Assembly: GCA_003663585.1 (NCBI GenBank)
Contig: QMTU01000001.1
Location: 1-27,386 of the forward strand
Direction of reading: 5' to 3'
DNA length: 27,386 bases
From: Thermoplasmata archaeon
GTDB lineage: Archaea; Thermoplasmatota; B47-G6
A program made the translations under genes and the position numbers. The notes beneath the pieces were generated by a model, which made no database searches, had not been told where the DNA came from, and saw only the letters and a program-made list of their open reading frames with translations. Numbering within the stretch: position 1 is the stretch's first letter; each line of letters opens with the position of its first letter. Shown here in pieces: positions 10,366-25,891 of the stretch.

Positions 10366-11097
10366 CTATGGTAAATAGTGATCTAGGAATTGGCGTACTG
10401 TATCGAGATGAACAGCGGATGCCCATAGTCCCCAGACTGGGTGTTGTGGTCCATTCTCTACAATAACGCCTACGAGTTCGCCTTTGCTATTAAATACTCC
10501 TCCACCACTGTTACCATAGTAGATGCTGCCATTAACCAATAACCATCTTGTCTCTGTATTATGGTAACTTGCTACGTTTTCCTTTGCTACTGTACCATGA
10601 GATATAATATCTTCCACTCTAGCACCATATCCTATGATCCATACAAAGTCTCCAACCTTTGGTGGAGATGAGGCTAGTGGAGCTACTAGCTTTAGTGGAG
10701 TAGTATCTGTGGTCATAAGGAGGGCTAGGTCGTTCTTTCTGCTTACTGCAATCGCAGTGACTCTATACTTGTCGTCTCCGTTGAACGAAATAAATCCATA
10801 TGGCATAATTGTCTGGTCTTGACGATTTATTACGCAATGTGCAGCTGTAAGAACAAAGATCCCTGAACTGCTTGCACTCACAACTGTTCCTCCGCAATTG
10901 GCTCTATTAAGATTATATACAACTACGTTGTATTCTACTAGCCGTTGTGGAACAGCAGGACGTAAGAGAGAAGGGGATTCATTAATAATTGGATTAGGCT
11001 GGACTTTGTGGATTGTGAGAGCACGGTGATCGCAGTTGCACGACAATACAGCCGCAAGCAGAAGAAATAAAAGCAGTTTTCGAAGCACTGTTATCAT
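10366..11097 (-). CDS. Exported trypsin-like serine protease (probable lipoprotein)
   Basis: LTAAHC, NDLALL, GNSGGG triad motifs; N-terminal hydrophobic signal ending VLSC. Confidence 0.85.
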   Translation of the reverse strand: MITVLRKLLLFLLLAAVLSCNCDHRALTIHKVQPNPIINESPSLLRPAVPQRLVEYNVVVYNLNRANCGGTVVSASSSGIFVLTAAHCVINRQDQTIMPYGFISFNGDDKYRVTAIAVSRKNDLALLMTTDTTPLKLVAPLASSPPKVGDFVWIIGYGARVEDIISHGTVAKENVASYHNTETRWLLVNGSIYYGNSGGGVFNSKGELVGVIVENGPQHPVWGLWASAVHLDTVRQFLDHYLP

Positions 11098-14793: not shown

Positions 14794-16035
14794 CTATTCA
14801 TCTAGAAATCCAGTCCTTCTTTGAACGGTCGATGTCTGTGCCTCTGTCTCTGGCATAGAAATATTTGATATAACTTCTTCATTTTCTATTGGTTTATCCA
14901 AGCTCATAATCAAATCACATATTTTAGCCACTCTTTTTGATCTAGTCTCTTCAATTTGCTTAGCACACTCATGCTTTTTGGAAGACATATAGTGTCTTCC
15001 ACAGAATATTTTCCCGCAGATTTCACACTTTACCGCATACCTGCTTCCTCGATGGTCTGGGCAAATAGTTTTGCCGCATACGCTACATGTGCTCTCTTCT
15101 GCGCATGACTTACACATAGGGCTGTGACAGTAGCTGCATTTACTGGTTTGTTTTCTATCAACCAGCTCCTTGCAAACAGGACACTGAATAGTATGCCAGT
15201 GTACTAATTGTACATAAGGAGACTCTTTGTTATATGTGCGCAATAGGCTATCTAATATTGCAACAATTTCATATAACTCAGCATTATTAAGTTTATCTCT
15301 AATAATTCTAGCTGCATCACCGAGACATATACGACCATCAGTAGAAACGTGGGGATGGTAAAATCCTCTATGTCTTCCGCTGGCGTATTTTGGTGTGGCA
15401 GCCGCCGCTGTTACTTGCGACGAAGATCGGCCAGGATCTCTGGAAAATCCTATATGTAGATAGAACTTACCGAGATCTACTTGTACAGTACGCTTCTTGC
15501 CACCTAGAGTCGTTCTGTATTTTAGCACTATTGGCTTATGTAACAAAATAGATAGCCTTAAGATATATCGAGGAGAGTTAGTGCATATTTCCTGAACCTC
15601 TCCAAAATCTCTTAGTACAGCCGGCAAATCCTCTCTTACCTTCGTAAGTACCTTAGCTTCTCTAATCGGTGCGCACAGTCGTTTTTGCGCGGCCTGAAGA
15701 TGACGTTTTGTATCATACATAACGCCCTCAATACTGTGTATTCCTTTTATAATACCTTCTAGCATACCGCCAATCTCATTATAGAAGATCGTAGGGACAC
15801 TGTTGTTGGTCTCTGTAATCTCCAATATCTTCTGGTATAATGGTGCAATGTCGGATATGTATTTGCGAAACTCGTCGTTGGCGCTGAGTAAACCTTTGTG
15901 ATCGATAATAGATGATAGACTTATTTGGGGCGTCTTGGTAGGTGACGGCAGGTCCTGCAGTAGTTTATCAATATCAGATGAGCTTGGTTGAGTTCCTGCA
16001 TTTTGGATTTGTGCGCCAAAGACCTCATTTGCCAT
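14794..16035 (-). CDS. E2/UBC-like protein with N-terminal helical region and C-terminal Zn fingers (paralog A)
   Basis: FYHPHVSTDGRICLG; C-terminal CPVC, CSYC, CKSC, CSVC, CPDH, CEICGKIFCGRH...HEC; start refined to ATG 16035. Confidence 0.78.
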   Translation of the reverse strand: MANEVFGAQIQNAGTQPSSSDIDKLLQDLPSPTKTPQISLSSIIDHKGLLSANDEFRKYISDIAPLYQKILEITETNNSVPTIFYNEIGGMLEGIIKGIHSIEGVMYDTKRHLQAAQKRLCAPIREAKVLTKVREDLPAVLRDFGEVQEICTNSPRYILRLSILLHKPIVLKYRTTLGGKKRTVQVDLGKFYLHIGFSRDPGRSSSQVTAAAATPKYASGRHRGFYHPHVSTDGRICLGDAARIIRDKLNNAELYEIVAILDSLLRTYNKESPYVQLVHWHTIQCPVCKELVDRKQTSKCSYCHSPMCKSCAEESTCSVCGKTICPDHRGSRYAVKCEICGKIFCGRHYMSSKKHECAKQIEETRSKRVAKICDLIMSLDKPIENEEVISNISMPETEAQTSTVQRRTGFLDE

Positions 16036-16062
16036 TATATCCTCCATGGATGTCTTAGTTTA

Positions 16063-16442
16063 TGGAGCTGGCGGGAGTCGAACCCGCGTCCATGATAGAA
16101 TCCACCAACTTCATACGACCATATCACCTGGTTCTATCTTATATAGCGCCTTTCCCAGGATTTCCTTTGGCGCTCCCTCTATCGCGCACCACCGGGCTTT
16201 TTGGACTAGCATGGGCTAGGTACCCGGAACCCGCTACTTTGGTTACCAGGGCGAGCGCAGCCCTGATGGCTGCTTACGTTTACACGTAAGCGCGGCTGCC
16301 AGACATGGAAGCCATGTCGGCAACCGAAGCCATGAATGCGAGCGAATCGTCGGCATTTGTGAGATGGGCCTTTTTAGAGTGGCCTGCCCAGCCACTAGTC
16401 GTCCATTGGCTTTTTCTAGCATGTCGAACCCTGTTCAGCCCC
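16063..16442 (-). ncRNA. ssrA: tmRNA (380 nt), CCA not encoded
   Basis: 5' GGGGCTGAACAGGGTTCGAC and 3' GGACGCGGGTTCGACTCCCGCCAGCTCCA; 7-bp acceptor stem with G3.U; helix-2 complementarity (ATG-TAGAA/TTCTA-CAT, ACGAC/GTCGT). Confidence 0.95.
16280..16354 (-). other. tmRNA tag reading frame: ADDSLAFMASVADMASMSGSRAYV*
   Basis: Resume codon GCC after ACAAAT; stop TAA in the loop of hairpin GCTTACGT-GTAA-ACGTAAGC. Confidence 0.8.
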
Positions 16443-16450
16443 AAAATGTG

Positions 16451-16678
16451 TTAGCTATCTGAAGTATCTTCTTCTAGCTCAACAAGTTCATAATAGTCAT
16501 GCCAGCTTTTACTGCATGCCAAACATGTCATTGGCTGTTTGGCAGTCCCCTGATCGATTTCTACAAAACCTCCCTGAAGATCATAACTTCCACAATATGG
16601 GCAAGTTACTCCACCCTTTCTTATGTATTCTTTGCATTGGCTGGTGCTAAGCAATTGATATTCCTCCTCTACCACCAA
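16451..16678 (-). CDS. Small Zn-ribbon protein
   Basis: CPYC and CLAC pairs. Confidence 0.65.
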   Translation of the reverse strand: MVVEEEYQLLSTSQCKEYIRKGGVTCPYCGSYDLQGGFVEIDQGTAKQPMTCLACSKSWHDYYELVELEEDTSDS

Positions 16679-16700
16679 TCTTTAAATTCATTTCTATAGA

Positions 16701-16964
16701 TTACGAAGCATACGGGTATTCTTCCTCTACTAACAACAGTGCCCATCCATCGGGTGACATTGGATGCTCCCTATTAATGTAGTAGACTCTAGTATATCGT
16801 TGGGGTGCAACTCCGCGCGGCATGGCATCATATTCATCTGCTTTACTATTCCACTCCTCTAACACATCGTCGATACTCTTGCCTTCCTCAACACCCGTAG
16901 TTATAGCACTTTTAATAGCCTGCTGTTCTGCTTCTTCAATACGGCCAAACCCGAGAACGACCAC
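16701..16964 (-). CDS. Hypothetical protein
   Basis: 87-aa ORF, GTG start behind GGAGG. Confidence 0.6.
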   Translation of the reverse strand: MVVLGFGRIEEAEQQAIKSAITTGVEEGKSIDDVLEEWNSKADEYDAMPRGVAPQRYTRVYYINREHPMSPDGWALLLVEEEYPYAS

Positions 16965-17084
16965 TTTGTTTCCTCCTAGTTACTCTCTAGCCATCTTTCC
17001 CAGCATACTGTACATGAATACTCTGCAGTACAGTCGAACCCTTCTCAACCCTTCTATCCTACTTCGATTAGTTGTCACGTTTCT

Positions 17085-17339
17085 CTAAACGGAACTACCC
17101 GTCTCTAGATCCCATAGTGGAAACTTTACAGAAGTAACGGTTACTCGATCGCCGGGCTGTAACCTATGATCTATGGTTATATGTTCGCGATTAACACGAA
17201 CAAGGTACTTGGCGGGGTTGGCATTTTTTCCCATTTCTTGGAAGAATAGATCTGATATCGTTGCACCTTTAGTAATTACCCTTCTGTTAGCAGATGAATT
17301 GCCATTGTCGTCGGTAAGTATTACATAGATTTCAGACAC
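17085..17339 (-). CDS. Second ubiquitin-like protein (Ubl-2) with extended non-Gly tail
   Basis: Clear paralog of Ubl-1 (LFFxEMG, AxPAxYLxRVNR, LQPGDRxTVT); GTG 17339 behind GGAGGAG aligns with the Ubl-1 start; an in-frame ATG at 17393 is an alternative. Confidence 0.75.
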   Translation of the reverse strand: MSEIYVILTDDNGNSSANRRVITKGATISDLFFQEMGKNANPAKYLVRVNREHITIDHRLQPGDRVTVTSVKFPLWDLETGSSV

Positions 17340-17400
17340 CTTCTCCTCCTGTGCGGGGATAGACATTTCTCCGGCTTGTTCAGAGATTTTCATCACTTCT

Positions 17401-17652
17401 TTATCTCTCCTCCGCGCACACGTCGGCCATCTTCCTAAGTTCGGCAATCGCACTCATCACCAGATACCGAGCACGCTTCTGCGGCACTTCTATTTTGTTG
17501 GCTATCTGCTGATAGCTCTTGCCCTTGCACCGCAGCAGCAGTGCCGCTTCCTCTGCCGGCGTTAGTAGTCCGGTGAACAGGCGCATAATAAACAGTGTTA
17601 ACTCTTTCCCGTATCTTATCTCTTCAGCTTTCATTGGTACTATCTCTTTCAC
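17401..17652 (-). CDS. Sigma70 region 4/LuxR-type HTH protein
   Basis: LTPAEEAALLLRCKGKSYQQIANKIEV...ARYLVMSAIAELRK. Confidence 0.7.
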   Translation of the reverse strand: MKEIVPMKAEEIRYGKELTLFIMRLFTGLLTPAEEAALLLRCKGKSYQQIANKIEVPQKRARYLVMSAIAELRKMADVCAEER

Positions 17653-17969
17653 GTTTCTATCTCCTCTATTCTCCTGTAGATACGACTCTGAAGGCCACGT
17701 TCAGCGCGTTCTCTGCGCAGCTGGGCCACATTTCCCCAGGCTGCGTCCGACAGCTCACACCAGTGCGTAAGGCGGTAGTAGCGGCCAGGGGTATAGGTGA
17801 TGTCACTGGAAGCCACCCGGCCAAACTTAACATAGCCTTCCTTGTTCCACTTCTTTACAATAGCGAAGTCCTCATTATTCATTAAGCTTGTATCAACCCA
17901 GCCTTTATGATCTACTGCCCGCGTTTCCAAATACATCAACAAGCTCGCCTCTGCCTTGCTTAGCTTCAT
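17649..17969 (-). CDS. Hypothetical protein
   Basis: 106-aa ORF with ATGA overlaps. Confidence 0.6.
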   Translation of the reverse strand: MKLSKAEASLLMYLETRAVDHKGWVDTSLMNNEDFAIVKKWNKEGYVKFGRVASSDITYTPGRYYRLTHWCELSDAAWGNVAQLRRERAERGLQSRIYRRIEEIET

Positions 17970-18196
17970 TTTATATCTCCTCTTTCCAGCTTATCTGCAT
18001 ACTCTAGTACAAACTTTATGTGGTCATCATTGCTTCTAAAATACCCTCCTTTTTGTAAAAAGTCGTTTCTATATCTTATGTATCGTAAATGCTGATAGTA
18101 TCCGCAGCCATCTGTTGGCCAGGCAAGTACGTCATGATTTGCTTTCACCCATTTTCGTAGATGGGCCACAACTTCTCTATCTGTCATCCCCCTCAT
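17966..18196 (-). CDS. Hypothetical protein
   Basis: 76-aa ORF in array. Confidence 0.55.
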   Translation of the reverse strand: MRGMTDREVVAHLRKWVKANHDVLAWPTDGCGYYQHLRYIRYRNDFLQKGGYFRSNDDHIKFVLEYADKLERGDIK

Positions 18197-20152: not shown

Positions 20153-20812
20153 TTAACGGAGTGCATCCTCAGTTACTTGTCTGATTGCTTTTACTGGGCA
20201 GCCATATAGCCATCCAGTTTCTGGCTCGCCACCACCCTGACGGTTAAATTGTGGGCCAAATTGACTGACTACTCCCACTAGTTTATTGTCGGAATCAAAG
20301 ATTCCTCCACCACTATTGCCATACCAAATAGTGGCATCGAATTGGTTTGCTATCATTCCGTAGTGATCTCTAACGTATATCTTACTTACAATCCCGTAAC
20401 TAAATGCATCACATTCTCCTGCGCCGCAGCCAGTAATCCAGACATCTTGTCCTACCTCCGGCTCTACTTTGGCTATCTCCGCACGCAGATTAAGGTTCAG
20501 GTCTCTAGGAATGCTTAAAACAGCGATGTCTGTTGTCTCAAAGCTGTCAATGGCAATAACTTCTACGGGATAAAGACTTCCGGTTGAGTCTTGCACGTAA
20601 AGCTGTACTGGAGGCCCATTCACGCAGTGTGATGCAGTGACTATTCCTCTGCTGGTTAAAGTTGTACCACAGATGGGACTGCTATAGTTTTCCATATATA
20701 ACGGGAGGTTATATTCTGCGAGGAGATAGAAGTTGGGTTTCTCGTTACCGGAGTAAACGGTAACGTTAGTACATGCAGACAGCATTATCAGTAGTGCCAG
20801 AAGATATTTCAT
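20153..20812 (-). CDS. Trypsin-like serine protease lipoprotein
   Basis: Lipobox LSAC; VTASHC, TDIAVL, GNSGGG. Confidence 0.85.
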   Translation of the reverse strand: MKYLLALLIMLSACTNVTVYSGNEKPNFYLLAEYNLPLYMENYSSPICGTTLTSRGIVTASHCVNGPPVQLYVQDSTGSLYPVEVIAIDSFETTDIAVLSIPRDLNLNLRAEIAKVEPEVGQDVWITGCGAGECDAFSYGIVSKIYVRDHYGMIANQFDATIWYGNSGGGIFDSDNKLVGVVSQFGPQFNRQGGGEPETGWLYGCPVKAIRQVTEDALR

Positions 20813-23772: not shown

Positions 23773-24353
23773 GTTCTATCTCCTTCCGGAAGCTGATTGT
23801 TTCCTATTATGTGCTCTTCTCTACATAAATCAAAGCATATCTGAGCGCGCCTAATATATCTGGCAGCTTCCTCATATGCCCTCATTAGTTGGTCTTTGTC
23901 TATGTTGTCAGTCTTTATTGTCACATTACCAGGAGCCCTAGTATGTAGAAATTCCTCAAGCTCTATTCCTTGTGTATCATCTATATTGTATGGCTCGCTT
24001 CTTGTTTCCTGGGGTCTAGTGAGAGCTCTTTTCTTACATGTCTCCGTGTTAGCGACTAGCTTGACAGTATAAACATCATGATCAAGATTTTCAAACAGCT
24101 CTCTAAGTCGCCACAAGACCCCAGTAGACTCGAGTACAAAATACTTGTTGGTATCTTCTAAAAGATTAGGCAATGCTGCATGCCATACATAGTCCTCTAT
24201 AGCAGAGGAAGATGAATGGTACTTTAACATTCTAGCTGTATGTTCTCTTACTTCGTCTATTGCAATGTGTGTCCATTCATTGAATTTCCCGACGAACCAT
24301 TTTGCAAAGGTCGTCTTGCCCGACGCAATAGGGCCTATAAGATTCACTATCAT
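23769..24353 (-). CDS. P-loop kinase (nucleoside/polynucleotide kinase-like)
   Basis: N-terminal Walker A GPIASGKTT, IDEVR, lid motif CKKRALTR. Confidence 0.75.
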   Translation of the reverse strand: MIVNLIGPIASGKTTFAKWFVGKFNEWTHIAIDEVREHTARMLKYHSSSSAIEDYVWHAALPNLLEDTNKYFVLESTGVLWRLRELFENLDHDVYTVKLVANTETCKKRALTRPQETRSEPYNIDDTQGIELEEFLHTRAPGNVTIKTDNIDKDQLMRAYEEAARYIRRAQICFDLCREEHIIGNNQLPEGDRT

Positions 24354-25116
24354 TTTGCATCTTCCTCCAATAGGGAACAGCTTTCTGTAGGAAACTCCTT
24401 ATTTCTTCGGTAGATACGAAGAAGGAGGCTCTGGTTGGAGCCATAGGAGAACCCTCTCTGAGCAACTCTGCACAGAAAATTCCTATTAGTGTGTCTGTCT
24501 GTTCCTCAAATATAGGACTCCCGCTGCCGCCGGGACCTCCAATAAACTGTGCTTGAACAAGTTCAAACTTGTTCTCAGTATTCAGATATCTTAATCCAAC
24601 TTTGCTAAAAAGAGTGATAATTTGGCTAATCCTGTGAGCTCGCAAAAGCATATATATGCGTGTCTTTGGAGAAGGAGTTTTAATTGCAAGAGTTACTGTA
24701 GGAACATAATTATCCTGAAGGTTAATGCTGAAGAGTGCAAGATCTCGGTCGAAATCAATTCCTGCTAATCGGAAATAAGTTGAGTCTTCTGCCAAGATAC
24801 CAGAGCAAAGCCTTCTCTGCTTTACAAGTGAGGCTAAATATTCTATTCGAGCCTTAAAAGTTGTACGGTCTATTCGGCCAAGCCTTAAGAGGTCAACAAG
24901 CTTGCTAAGTAAAAGATTATAGTTACAGGAATGGGCGACGCTTAATATCATACACCTATGCTGTTTGTTACATCCTAGTATAATACCATTAGTATAATGC
25001 CTGTTCAGAAACAACATTCCGCGTACACTGTCAATATTATCCCTGAAGCTATTTGCGTAAGATGTAAATGGAAATATTACTAATATTATCAAGCTCAACT
25101 TACCTAGGAGTTTCAT
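24277..25116 (-). CDS. Divergent exported trypsin-like protease
   Basis: Signal peptide; LSVAHSC, RDLALF, PGGSGSPIF; start refined to ATG 25116. Confidence 0.65.
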   Translation of the reverse strand: MKLLGKLSLIILVIFPFTSYANSFRDNIDSVRGMLFLNRHYTNGIILGCNKQHRCMILSVAHSCNYNLLLSKLVDLLRLGRIDRTTFKARIEYLASLVKQRRLCSGILAEDSTYFRLAGIDFDRDLALFSINLQDNYVPTVTLAIKTPSPKTRIYMLLRAHRISQIITLFSKVGLRYLNTENKFELVQAQFIGGPGGSGSPIFEEQTDTLIGIFCAELLREGSPMAPTRASFFVSTEEIRSFLQKAVPYWRKMQNDSESYRPYCVGQDDLCKMVRREIQ

Positions 25117-25132
25117 TACTACTCCCTTCTGT

Positions 25133-25891
25133 TTATGGCAACTCACCATTCAAAAATTTTTGGCAGTTAAACAGCTTTTGTCTGGTTATGGTAGTATATT
25201 TATCCATTGCTCTCTCCGCATATGCCTCTGCCATGCTGCCATTATTATAGCGTCTCCAGGCAAGTCTGTGGCTGTATTCATATCTTTGAAGTAGATACAT
25301 ATAATGGAGGAGAAATACTTTCGTAGCCTCTAAAGGATCTAACAAAAGTCTCACAAGATATTCGTCGTTTTCTGATGCAATTGATAACACCTTGGTTTGT
25401 CTGCCAGTAAGGCGGACAGTATCTAGTTTGAACTGGTATATTCCCACTTCGCCAGCACTACCAATCATGAACTCATACATTGTCTCTTGCTCTGCTGTTA
25501 CCAGAGCGGAGATACACAAGTCCAGCTTTCTCTCGGGGCTAATACTGGGAAATACCTGCTGAATCGCTTGCGGGATTGCCTGGATAAATGTAGGTATTCT
25601 ATCGTACCGTCGTCTCATACTCAGCCGCCAGGATATTGCATTTTCGCATGCTGCTTGCCAGTCATCTTCCGTAGGAATATAAATGTATACTCTGCTGCCA
25701 GCCAGCAGTTTGCGGGGAAAATTGTTTTGAACTAGAAGATCTTTGACACGATATGGAGACTTGTAGTATTGAATGGAAATACCTCTCCATGTTTCTCCTT
25801 GTTGGACGTCATGTACTATGCAGCGTGCCTTTGCTTCTAGCGGGAGAACAAAGAGCAAGCTCAATAAGGCTTTTACCGCGCCATAGCGCAT
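25133..25891 (-). CDS. LysM + lytic transglycosylase (SLT-like) protein
   Basis: Signal peptide; LysM-like HDVQQGETWRGIS...N...LLAGSRVYI; QET (catalytic Glu), GEVGIYQF, WRRYNNG. Confidence 0.7.
   Translation of the reverse strand: MRYGAVKALLSLLFVLPLEAKARCIVHDVQQGETWRGISIQYYKSPYRVKDLLVQNNFPRKLLAGSRVYIYIPTEDDWQAACENAISWRLSMRRRYDRIPTFIQAIPQAIQQVFPSISPERKLDLCISALVTAEQETMYEFMIGSAGEVGIYQFKLDTVRLTGRQTKVLSIASENDEYLVRLLLDPLEATKVFLLHYMYLLQRYEYSHRLAWRRYNNGSMAEAYAERAMDKYTTITRQKLFNCQKFLNGELP

Follow-up and report, generated by a model that had tools for sequence, protein, structure and literature searches.

A one-piece tmRNA with a 24-residue, valine-ending tag on a probable bacteriophage contig binned with an archaeal genome

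The DNA analysed here (the window) comprises contig C1 in full, 27,386 nt, from a 1.07-Mb genome bin of 211 contigs assigned to a Thermoplasmata archaeon. It carries an intact one-piece tmRNA gene, and we regard it as probable that this gene belongs to a large dsDNA bacteriophage, of which C1 and a second contig, C2, are fragments that were mis-binned into the archaeal MAG.

ARAGORN called a single tmRNA on the minus strand, the sole RNA gene found in the window, and the same stretch matched RF00023 in Rfam over model positions 1-374 with a score of 104.3 bits (E = 4.7e-40), where the gathering score is 47 bits. The coordinates of the gene, its parts and its neighbours are collected in Table 1. 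The tRNA-like domain is complete, with a 7-bp acceptor stem, a T-loop of the UUCGAnU type and the discriminator A. The alanine identity pair G3:U70 is present, G3 (16440) being paired with the U at 16066 (U377 of the RNA). The CCA end is not encoded; the discriminator is followed by UAA. Pseudoknot 1 (PK1) is of the H type, with stem 1 formed by RNA positions 47-52/60-65 (AGUGGC/GCCACU), stem 2 by 53-57/74-78 (UGGGC/GCCCA), and an A-rich third loop. As judged by inspection and from the Rfam alignment, PK1 appears to lie closely upstream of the resume codon at RNA position 89. The spacer UCUCACAAAU has an A at position -4 and aligns to the A-rich consensus 5' of the resume codon. The region of pseudoknots 2-4 comprises ∼150 nt of structured RNA with hairpins in the minimum free energy fold, and its alignment to the Rfam model is gap-rich and of low posterior probability. 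The whole RNA folds with a minimum free energy of −150.5 kcal/mol (z = −3.2), and its RF00023 score of 104 bits falls short of those of cellular Planctomycetota tmRNAs (115-198 bits).

Table 1. Positions of the tmRNA gene, its structural parts and the adjacent reading frames in the window
Feature	Position	Strand	Basis or remark
One-piece tmRNA gene, 380 nt	16063-16442	-	ARAGORN and Rfam RF00023
Acceptor stem, 5' strand GGGGCUG	16436-16442	-	Sequence reading and pairing in Rfam alignment
Pseudoknot 1 (PK1)	16365-16396	-	Inspection; fits PK1 columns of Rfam alignment
Single-stranded spacer UCUCACAAAU, 10 nt, PK1 to resume codon	16355-16364	-	Rfam alignment and sequence reading
Tag reading frame ADDSLAFMASVADMASMSGSRAYV	16280-16354	-	ARAGORN, Rfam, frame reading
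Extra hairpin within tag frame, core GACAUGG-CUU-CCAUGUC	16293-16326 (RNA 117-150)	-	Folding
Helix 5, 8-bp hairpin, stop codon in GUAA loop	16272-16291	-	Rfam alignment, sequence reading, folding
Region of pseudoknots 2-4	16123-16271	-	Structured, diverged from Rfam consensus
T-arm GCGGG-UUCGACU-CCCGC	16071-16087	-	Rfam alignment, posterior probability '*' throughout
Acceptor stem, 3' strand CAGCUCC	16064-16070	-	Rfam alignment, posterior probability '*' throughout
Discriminator A (A380)	16063	-	Rfam alignment
Upstream 75-aa zinc-ribbon ORF	16451-16678	-	Stop 8 nt before tmRNA 5' end
Downstream 417-aa E2-like/zinc-finger ORF	14794-16047	-	Start 15-27 nt past tmRNA 3' end

The initial annotation, made from the letters alone, had described a long tag of 24 codons without terminal Ala-Ala, and this description was upheld: ARAGORN placed the tag at identical coordinates and RF00023 agrees. 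The coding part spans RNA positions 89-163, from the resume codon GCC (16352-16354) to the stop codon UAA (16280-16282). The consensus resume codon GCa of RF00023 falls on the same GCC as is given by ARAGORN. The tag ADDSLAFMASVADMASMSGSRAYV thus has 24 sense codons followed by UAA and ends in -SRAYV. The frame closes with GCU UAC GUG UAA within a hairpin, GCUUACGU-GUAA-ACGUAAGC (RNA 152-171), whose tetraloop contains the stop; the initial annotation had likewise put the stop in a hairpin loop. A different resume frame that would give a canonical tag was looked for, and none was found, the two alternative frames giving peptides of 36 and 48 residues that end in PW and PC. All in-frame starts at Ala codons give the same -SRAYV end, so that the C-terminus is robust and the length alone is arguable. 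The canonical ClpX-type ending (LAA, VAA or MAA; hydrophobic-Ala-Ala-COOH) is absent, R-A-Y-V standing in its place.

The repeated MAS unit noted earlier is also real, both copies being encoded by a 9-nt direct repeat, CAUGGCUUC, at RNA positions 109 and 127. In addition, the two arms of the extra hairpin within the tag frame encode D-M-A and S-M-S. The segment RNA 85-175 folds with −42.8 kcal/mol (z = −4.8), and none of 200 shuffled sequences folded as well. The Met/Ala/Ser-rich, repetitive character of the tag thus stems, at least in part, from RNA structure and duplication, which makes a designed peptide signal in the middle of the tag less likely.

Several studies have yielded metagenomes with the same RNA, of marine sediment, marine and hydrothermal-vent origin; no RNA run was among the data sets listed for it. 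Contigs from other runs and a JGI contig (L208) show a small number of changes in the RNA, and two sites in the tag frame vary among those that cover the frame. At 16343, C>T changes UCG to UCA, which is synonymous at Ser4 (run X3), and at 16305, A>G changes AUG to ACG and gives Met17Thr (run X2 and JGI contig L208). The second change affects both the peptide and the extra hairpin, in which one base pair is lost. The frame is intact in all of these contigs, consistent with a functional frame. Away from the tmRNA, in the ORF at 16701-16964 (-), two genes upstream, contigs of three other runs carry an in-frame insertion of 27 nt (9 codons) at window position 16778.

These features bear on whether the tag peptide is selected as a signal at all. 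The RNA could engage SmpB and ribosomes without such selection, either because release alone matters and the frame has drifted or taken up a hairpin, or because the RNA acts mainly as a decoy that titrates host SmpB, as proposed for phage DS6A. This would account for the mapping of the M/A/S repeats onto hairpin arms and a direct repeat, for the circulation of a polymorphism that changes both the peptide and a base pair, and for the divergence of the PK2-4 region. It also has a precedent, since DS6A carries a phage-borne tmRNA derivative, reduced to the tRNA-like domain, that is proposed to act on SmpB by titration (PMC4131195). However, DS6A lacks an mRNA-like domain, whereas the RNA studied here is full length with a frame that is open exactly from a correctly spaced resume codon to the stop in the helix 5 loop. 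Its tRNA-like domain, G3:U70 pair and PK1 are intact, no frame-breaking variant occurs in X2, X3 or L208, and the last residue of the tag is hydrophobic, as in nearly all natural tags (PMC4131195). We thus consider an unselected tag unlikely, with some weight left to it.

The origin of the contig was examined from both sides, the bin and the contig itself. The bin is archaeal, with a gene for ribosomal protein S3Ae, a protein that among the controls was matched in the four archaeal ones alone. In 20 relatives of the bin (14 of them at least 90% complete), no tmRNA scored above the cut-off and SmpB was absent from every genome; SmpB was likewise found neither in the bin nor on the contig. The archaeal tmRNA matches published so far have all been rejected (PMC4131195). 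A bacterial-type tmRNA is therefore foreign to this archaeal genome.

On C1 itself, the long ORFs are tightly packed and all on one strand. The contig gives strong PHROG matches to an RNA ligase (phrog_968, 3e-40) and a nucleotidyltransferase (phrog_388, 7e-57), and further matches to phrog_4400, phrog_8133, phrog_7851 and phrog_1818. Its nearest neighbour in tetranucleotide composition is C2 (distance 0.0115; distance to the bin centroid, 0.024). Like C1, C2 is unidirectional, and it carries a phage replication module, with a DNA polymerase (phrog_405, 1105 bits), a primase-helicase, a UvsX-like recombinase, a ribonucleotide reductase and a thymidylate synthase. Both contigs have genes in common with a complete 168-kb virus in IMG/VR, at 25-55% identity. 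Neither C1 nor C2 carries virion genes themselves; large terminase genes are present on contigs C13 and C71 of the bin (567 and 566 aa, identical scores), which suggests two strain copies. Other phage contigs, C83, C150 and C123, are also present in the bin, whose CheckM-type contamination score is 1.15%. The earlier description of the tmRNA as viral is thus borne out by the PHROG matches, the twin contig C2 and the genes common with the 168-kb virus, and the viral nature of C1 is well supported.

That the contig could instead be an element of the bin's archaeon, either an archaeal virus or a transferred island in which the tmRNA has a non-canonical role, is suggested by the binning and by similar GC contents (43.6% for the contig, 41.7% for the bin). 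We find this scarcely credible, given the 20 relatives without SmpB or tmRNA and the rejection of all published archaeal matches. C1 is moreover a tetranucleotide outlier for a 27-kb contig (rank 15 of 110) that pairs with C2, and the five homologues of its E1 protein that were found among 185,579 species all belong to Planctomycetota.

Alternatively, the contig could derive from a bacterium, as part of its chromosome or of a genomic island; the tmRNA would then be the housekeeping ssrA of that bacterium with an odd tag. Genes for tmRNA are common insertion sites of islands and prophages (PMC3203893), relatives of the E1 are found on MAG contigs of Planctomycetota, among which is a chromosome of 5.8 Mb, and the window has no virion gene. 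However, the full-length ssrA is internal to the phage-like region and not at a prophage-host junction, with same-strand genes 8 and 15-27 nt away, and strand, gene density and the Ubl theme are the same on both sides of it. The 27 kb contain no housekeeping gene, PHROG matches are many, the compositional twin carries a phage replication module, and the GC content is 43.6%. A chromosomal origin is thus improbable.

A further possibility is that the tmRNA sequence serves mainly as an attP site for integration into a host ssrA. The 3'-terminal 30 nt (16063-16092) are identical to the tmRNA 3' ends of other contigs from the same metagenomes, and cluster K1 mycobacteriophages integrate into ssrA (PMC3203893). 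Yet an attP core consists of a short 3' fragment, and the gene in the window is complete at 380 nt, 5' half and tag frame included; in addition, the ORFs scanned yielded no integrase. An attP function as the main one is accordingly very hard to credit. The depth of contigs over 16063-16092 is very high in all of four runs, up to ∼1000-fold when summed. Since these 30 nt match many other metagenome contigs, several unrelated ones exactly, the segment is a generic bacterial tmRNA 3' end, and the depth there is uninformative on the phage. The preferred reading therefore remains that of a phage gene in mis-binned fragments. A real tmRNA in an 'archaeal' bin is then a clean sign of contamination by viral or bacterial DNA, of a kind that marker-gene tools miss, as the score of this bin illustrates.

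The host of the phage was approached through proteins and through the RNA. A search of 185,579 species, with one genome each, gave five relatives of the E1 protein at 44-55% identity, all in Planctomycetota. This link through one protein points weakly to Planctomycetota, the sole candidate host phylum identified. Inference of the host from the RNA failed, as global identity falls in the same range, 53-59%, whether the comparison is with Planctomycetota, phage or metagenome tmRNAs. The Planctomycetota tmRNAs start with GGGGGCGA and the tmRNA of the window with GGGGCUGA, and the acceptor stems differ. The phage RNA is not a recent copy of a host gene of this type.

Planctomycetota tmRNAs were extracted from 73 of 81 sampled genomes, and ARAGORN was run on 32 loci, giving no call for one of them (L063). 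All 31 tags called have 8-18 residues and end in LAA, MAA or FAA. A host tag with an ending like that of the phage tag was thus looked for in the candidate phylum and found in none of the 31, and the contrast stands. The overall architecture is common to the phage RNA and to the cellular SsrA of E. coli and Planctomycetota: an acceptor stem with G3:U70, a T-arm, helix 2, PK1, a resume Ala codon ∼10 nt after it and a stop in the helix 5 loop. The phage RNA is unlike them in its 24-residue tag ending in AYV, the extra hairpin in frame, the diverged PK2-4 region and the phage context. Three observations on cellular loci were made in passing. The longest cellular tag in the sample is the 18-residue ANDNIAGRIGFAPARMAA, followed by three stop codons, on a Phycisphaeraceae chromosome (L034:1501-1874). 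In 8 of the 32 Planctomycetota loci (L040, L041, L042, L045, L052, L055, L058 and L064), a tRNA-Leu(CAG) gene lies within ∼1.5 kb of the tmRNA on the opposite strand, which looks like a conserved neighbourhood. A metagenome contig (Ga0129298_10008720, L210:1005-1432) has a 428-nt tmRNA with the tag AEYTPAYATA beside a tRNA-Leu(CAG); it resembles a cellular gene whose tag has an unusual end, Thr-Ala in place of Ala-Ala.

The gene immediately downstream of the tmRNA, encoding the 417-aa E2-like protein, is the first of a Ubl cassette (E2, Ubl, E2, JAB, E1). For the E2-like protein, no relative was found among 5.8 billion proteins or in IMG/VR. The complete 168-kb virus is the nearest and only IMG/VR relative of the cassette, and it is without a tmRNA; likewise, none of the five Planctomycetota loci with E1 relatives has a tmRNA within 8 kb. 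The adjacency of tmRNA and Ubl genes is therefore not conserved. Pfam searches of C1 identified an RNA-repair set (RNA ligase, HAD phosphatase, nucleotidyltransferases and kinase), and, in addition to the ThiF/JAB/E2/Ubl cassette, a protein of the M24 fold. The 27-kb fragment also encodes three trypsin-like serine peptidase paralogues (10366-11097, 20153-20812 and 24277-25149, all on the minus strand), in which no PDZ domain was detectable. ARAGORN found no tRNA on the contig, and a scan for minus-strand promoters and terminators near the tmRNA found none.

The most likely role for the RNA, we infer, is the rescue of ribosomes during infection with the help of host SmpB, and this role fits the presence of RNA-repair genes on the same contig. 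Situated in a long same-strand array without a promoter or terminator of its own, the tmRNA would probably be excised from a polycistronic transcript, with RNase P acting at the 5' end. The CCA would be added post-transcriptionally and the RNA charged by host AlaRS through the G3:U70 pair. Host SmpB and EF-Tu would bring it into ribosomes stalled on broken mRNAs, where translation would resume at GCC (RNA position 89) and stop at the UAA in helix 5. The ribosome would be freed, and Ala plus 24 residues ending in -RAYV would be added to the stalled product. The benefit to the phage is likely to be that ribosomes are kept available while mRNAs and tRNAs are being cut in the infected cell.

For the fate of the tagged proteins, some guidance comes from work on other tags. 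In a screen of C-terminal pentapeptides in E. coli, the final two positions showed a strong enrichment of Ala and the final one a depletion of Val (PMC10862746), and an engineered ssrA variant ending in -AAV gave slower degradation than -LAA (PMC9382460). The phage tag is without Ala-Ala-COOH, and in the light of these results the -RAYV end would probably make it a degron that is weaker than the host's own tag, or routed differently. Another route is known from mycoplasmas, where a long tag with a different ending is matched to another protease, Lon (PMC9382460). Mesoplasma florum and Mycoplasma tags are naturally long with a non-LAA end, NYAFA, and show that the length and end of a tag can co-evolve with a different protease (PMC9382460). 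However, M. florum is of a cellular lineage without ClpXP and has a known reader, mf-Lon, and its tag has no sequence similarity to the phage tag. If tags such as the present one do escape or re-route host proteolysis, phages would reprogram bacterial protein quality control and not merely borrow it.

A stronger version of this idea is that the Val-ending tag is a dedicated signal, by which rescued polypeptides are kept from host ClpXP and handed to the Ubl E1/E2/JAB cassette and the three trypsin-like proteases. If true, the virus would be running its own analogue of eukaryotic ribosome-associated quality control, in which stalled products are marked by a ubiquitin-like modifier; we hold it to be most improbable. 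The initial annotation had suggested that tagged products might be spared or redirected, or that the tag might be a handle for a phage-encoded reader. Neither idea gained support from the contig: no ClpX/Clp, Lon, SspB-like or PDZ-type domain was seen in the ∼30 ORFs scanned, and the nearest relative of the adjacent Ubl cassette is without a tmRNA.

Few phages carry a tmRNA, with the gene reported in 402 of 18,146 phage genomes (2.3%; PMC9004378). The phage tmRNAs listed by Hudson et al. in 2014 are those of Bacillus phage G, the Bxz1 group and Wildcat, together with the TLD-only RNA of DS6A (PMC4131195), and huge phages carry tmRNA genes, sometimes with SmpB as well (PMC7162821). We found no study in the literature on what the tags of phage tmRNAs do. 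No diverged homologue of the tmRNA was found in GenBank phages or IMG/VR: a blastn search of 50,697 GenBank phages with window positions 15000-18000 gave no match, and neither did a search of IMG/VR with a specific 5' pattern of the tmRNA. A metagenome search returned only the same RNA (L208) and unrelated tmRNAs with identical first 20 nt.

The tags of known phage tmRNAs were re-derived with the same tools. The tag of Bxz1 (AY129337), ATDTDATVTDAEIEAFFAEEAAALV, has 25 codons and ends in ALV; that of Wildcat, AVDTDVDFAMWEAELASDLVAA, has 22 codons; and that of phage G, AKLNITNNELQVA, has 13 codons and ends in QVA, the published ending that is not AA (PMC12484599). In tag length and in the Ala-x-Val end, Bxz1 is the most similar to the present case. 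The RNA of Bxz1 (a Bixzunavirus) is likewise a one-piece phage tmRNA, and its tag is about double the length of cellular ones. Both tags start with A-[DT]-D and end in Ala-hydrophobic-Val (ALV and AYV). However, the Bxz1 tag is strongly acidic whereas the tag described here is Met/Ser/Ala-rich, the two RNAs have ∼57% global identity (Rfam scores of 73.9 and 104.3 bits, respectively), and their contexts differ, the Bxz1 gene lying within a tRNA array and the present one within a Ubl-conjugation cluster, on a contig without tRNA genes. Wildcat also has a long tag but keeps a terminal -VAA, and phage G also lacks an AA end but has a short tag; in both, the gene is in a tRNA cluster. As these three phages already show the pattern, the tmRNA of the window is a further example of a known oddity. 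It adds an environmental large phage, found in marine sediment and at vents, to the recurring cases of phage tags that are about twice the cellular length, some of them without Ala-Ala.

Among the metagenome tmRNAs with the same first 20 nt, one (L206; Ga0315284_10000457, 55.9 kb, tmRNA at 1305-1692) also has a 24-codon tag, AKNILDRANEIVNAVSPIEVPVAA, and is embedded in small same-strand ORFs on a phage-like contig. Its global identity to the RNA of the window is ∼56%, and its tag is unrelated in sequence and keeps -VAA. For a broader comparison, 59 tmRNAs with the GGGGCUGA start were taken from IMG/VR contigs. Their median tag length is 10 residues, 51 of the 59 end in AA and none ends in Val, many of these genes probably being host genes at prophage ends. 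A few of the 59 have tags of 23-28 residues, on large contigs. Tags of 23 codons, GKNIPVNLLAQGQVGHSNFAYAG, which ends in Ala-Gly, and AKTTSVETPILQFPGTVAYQVAA, were seen on the large viral contigs L091 (IMGVR_UViG_3300035698_022190, 210 kb), L117 and L153, which are candidates for further cases of the long phage tag.
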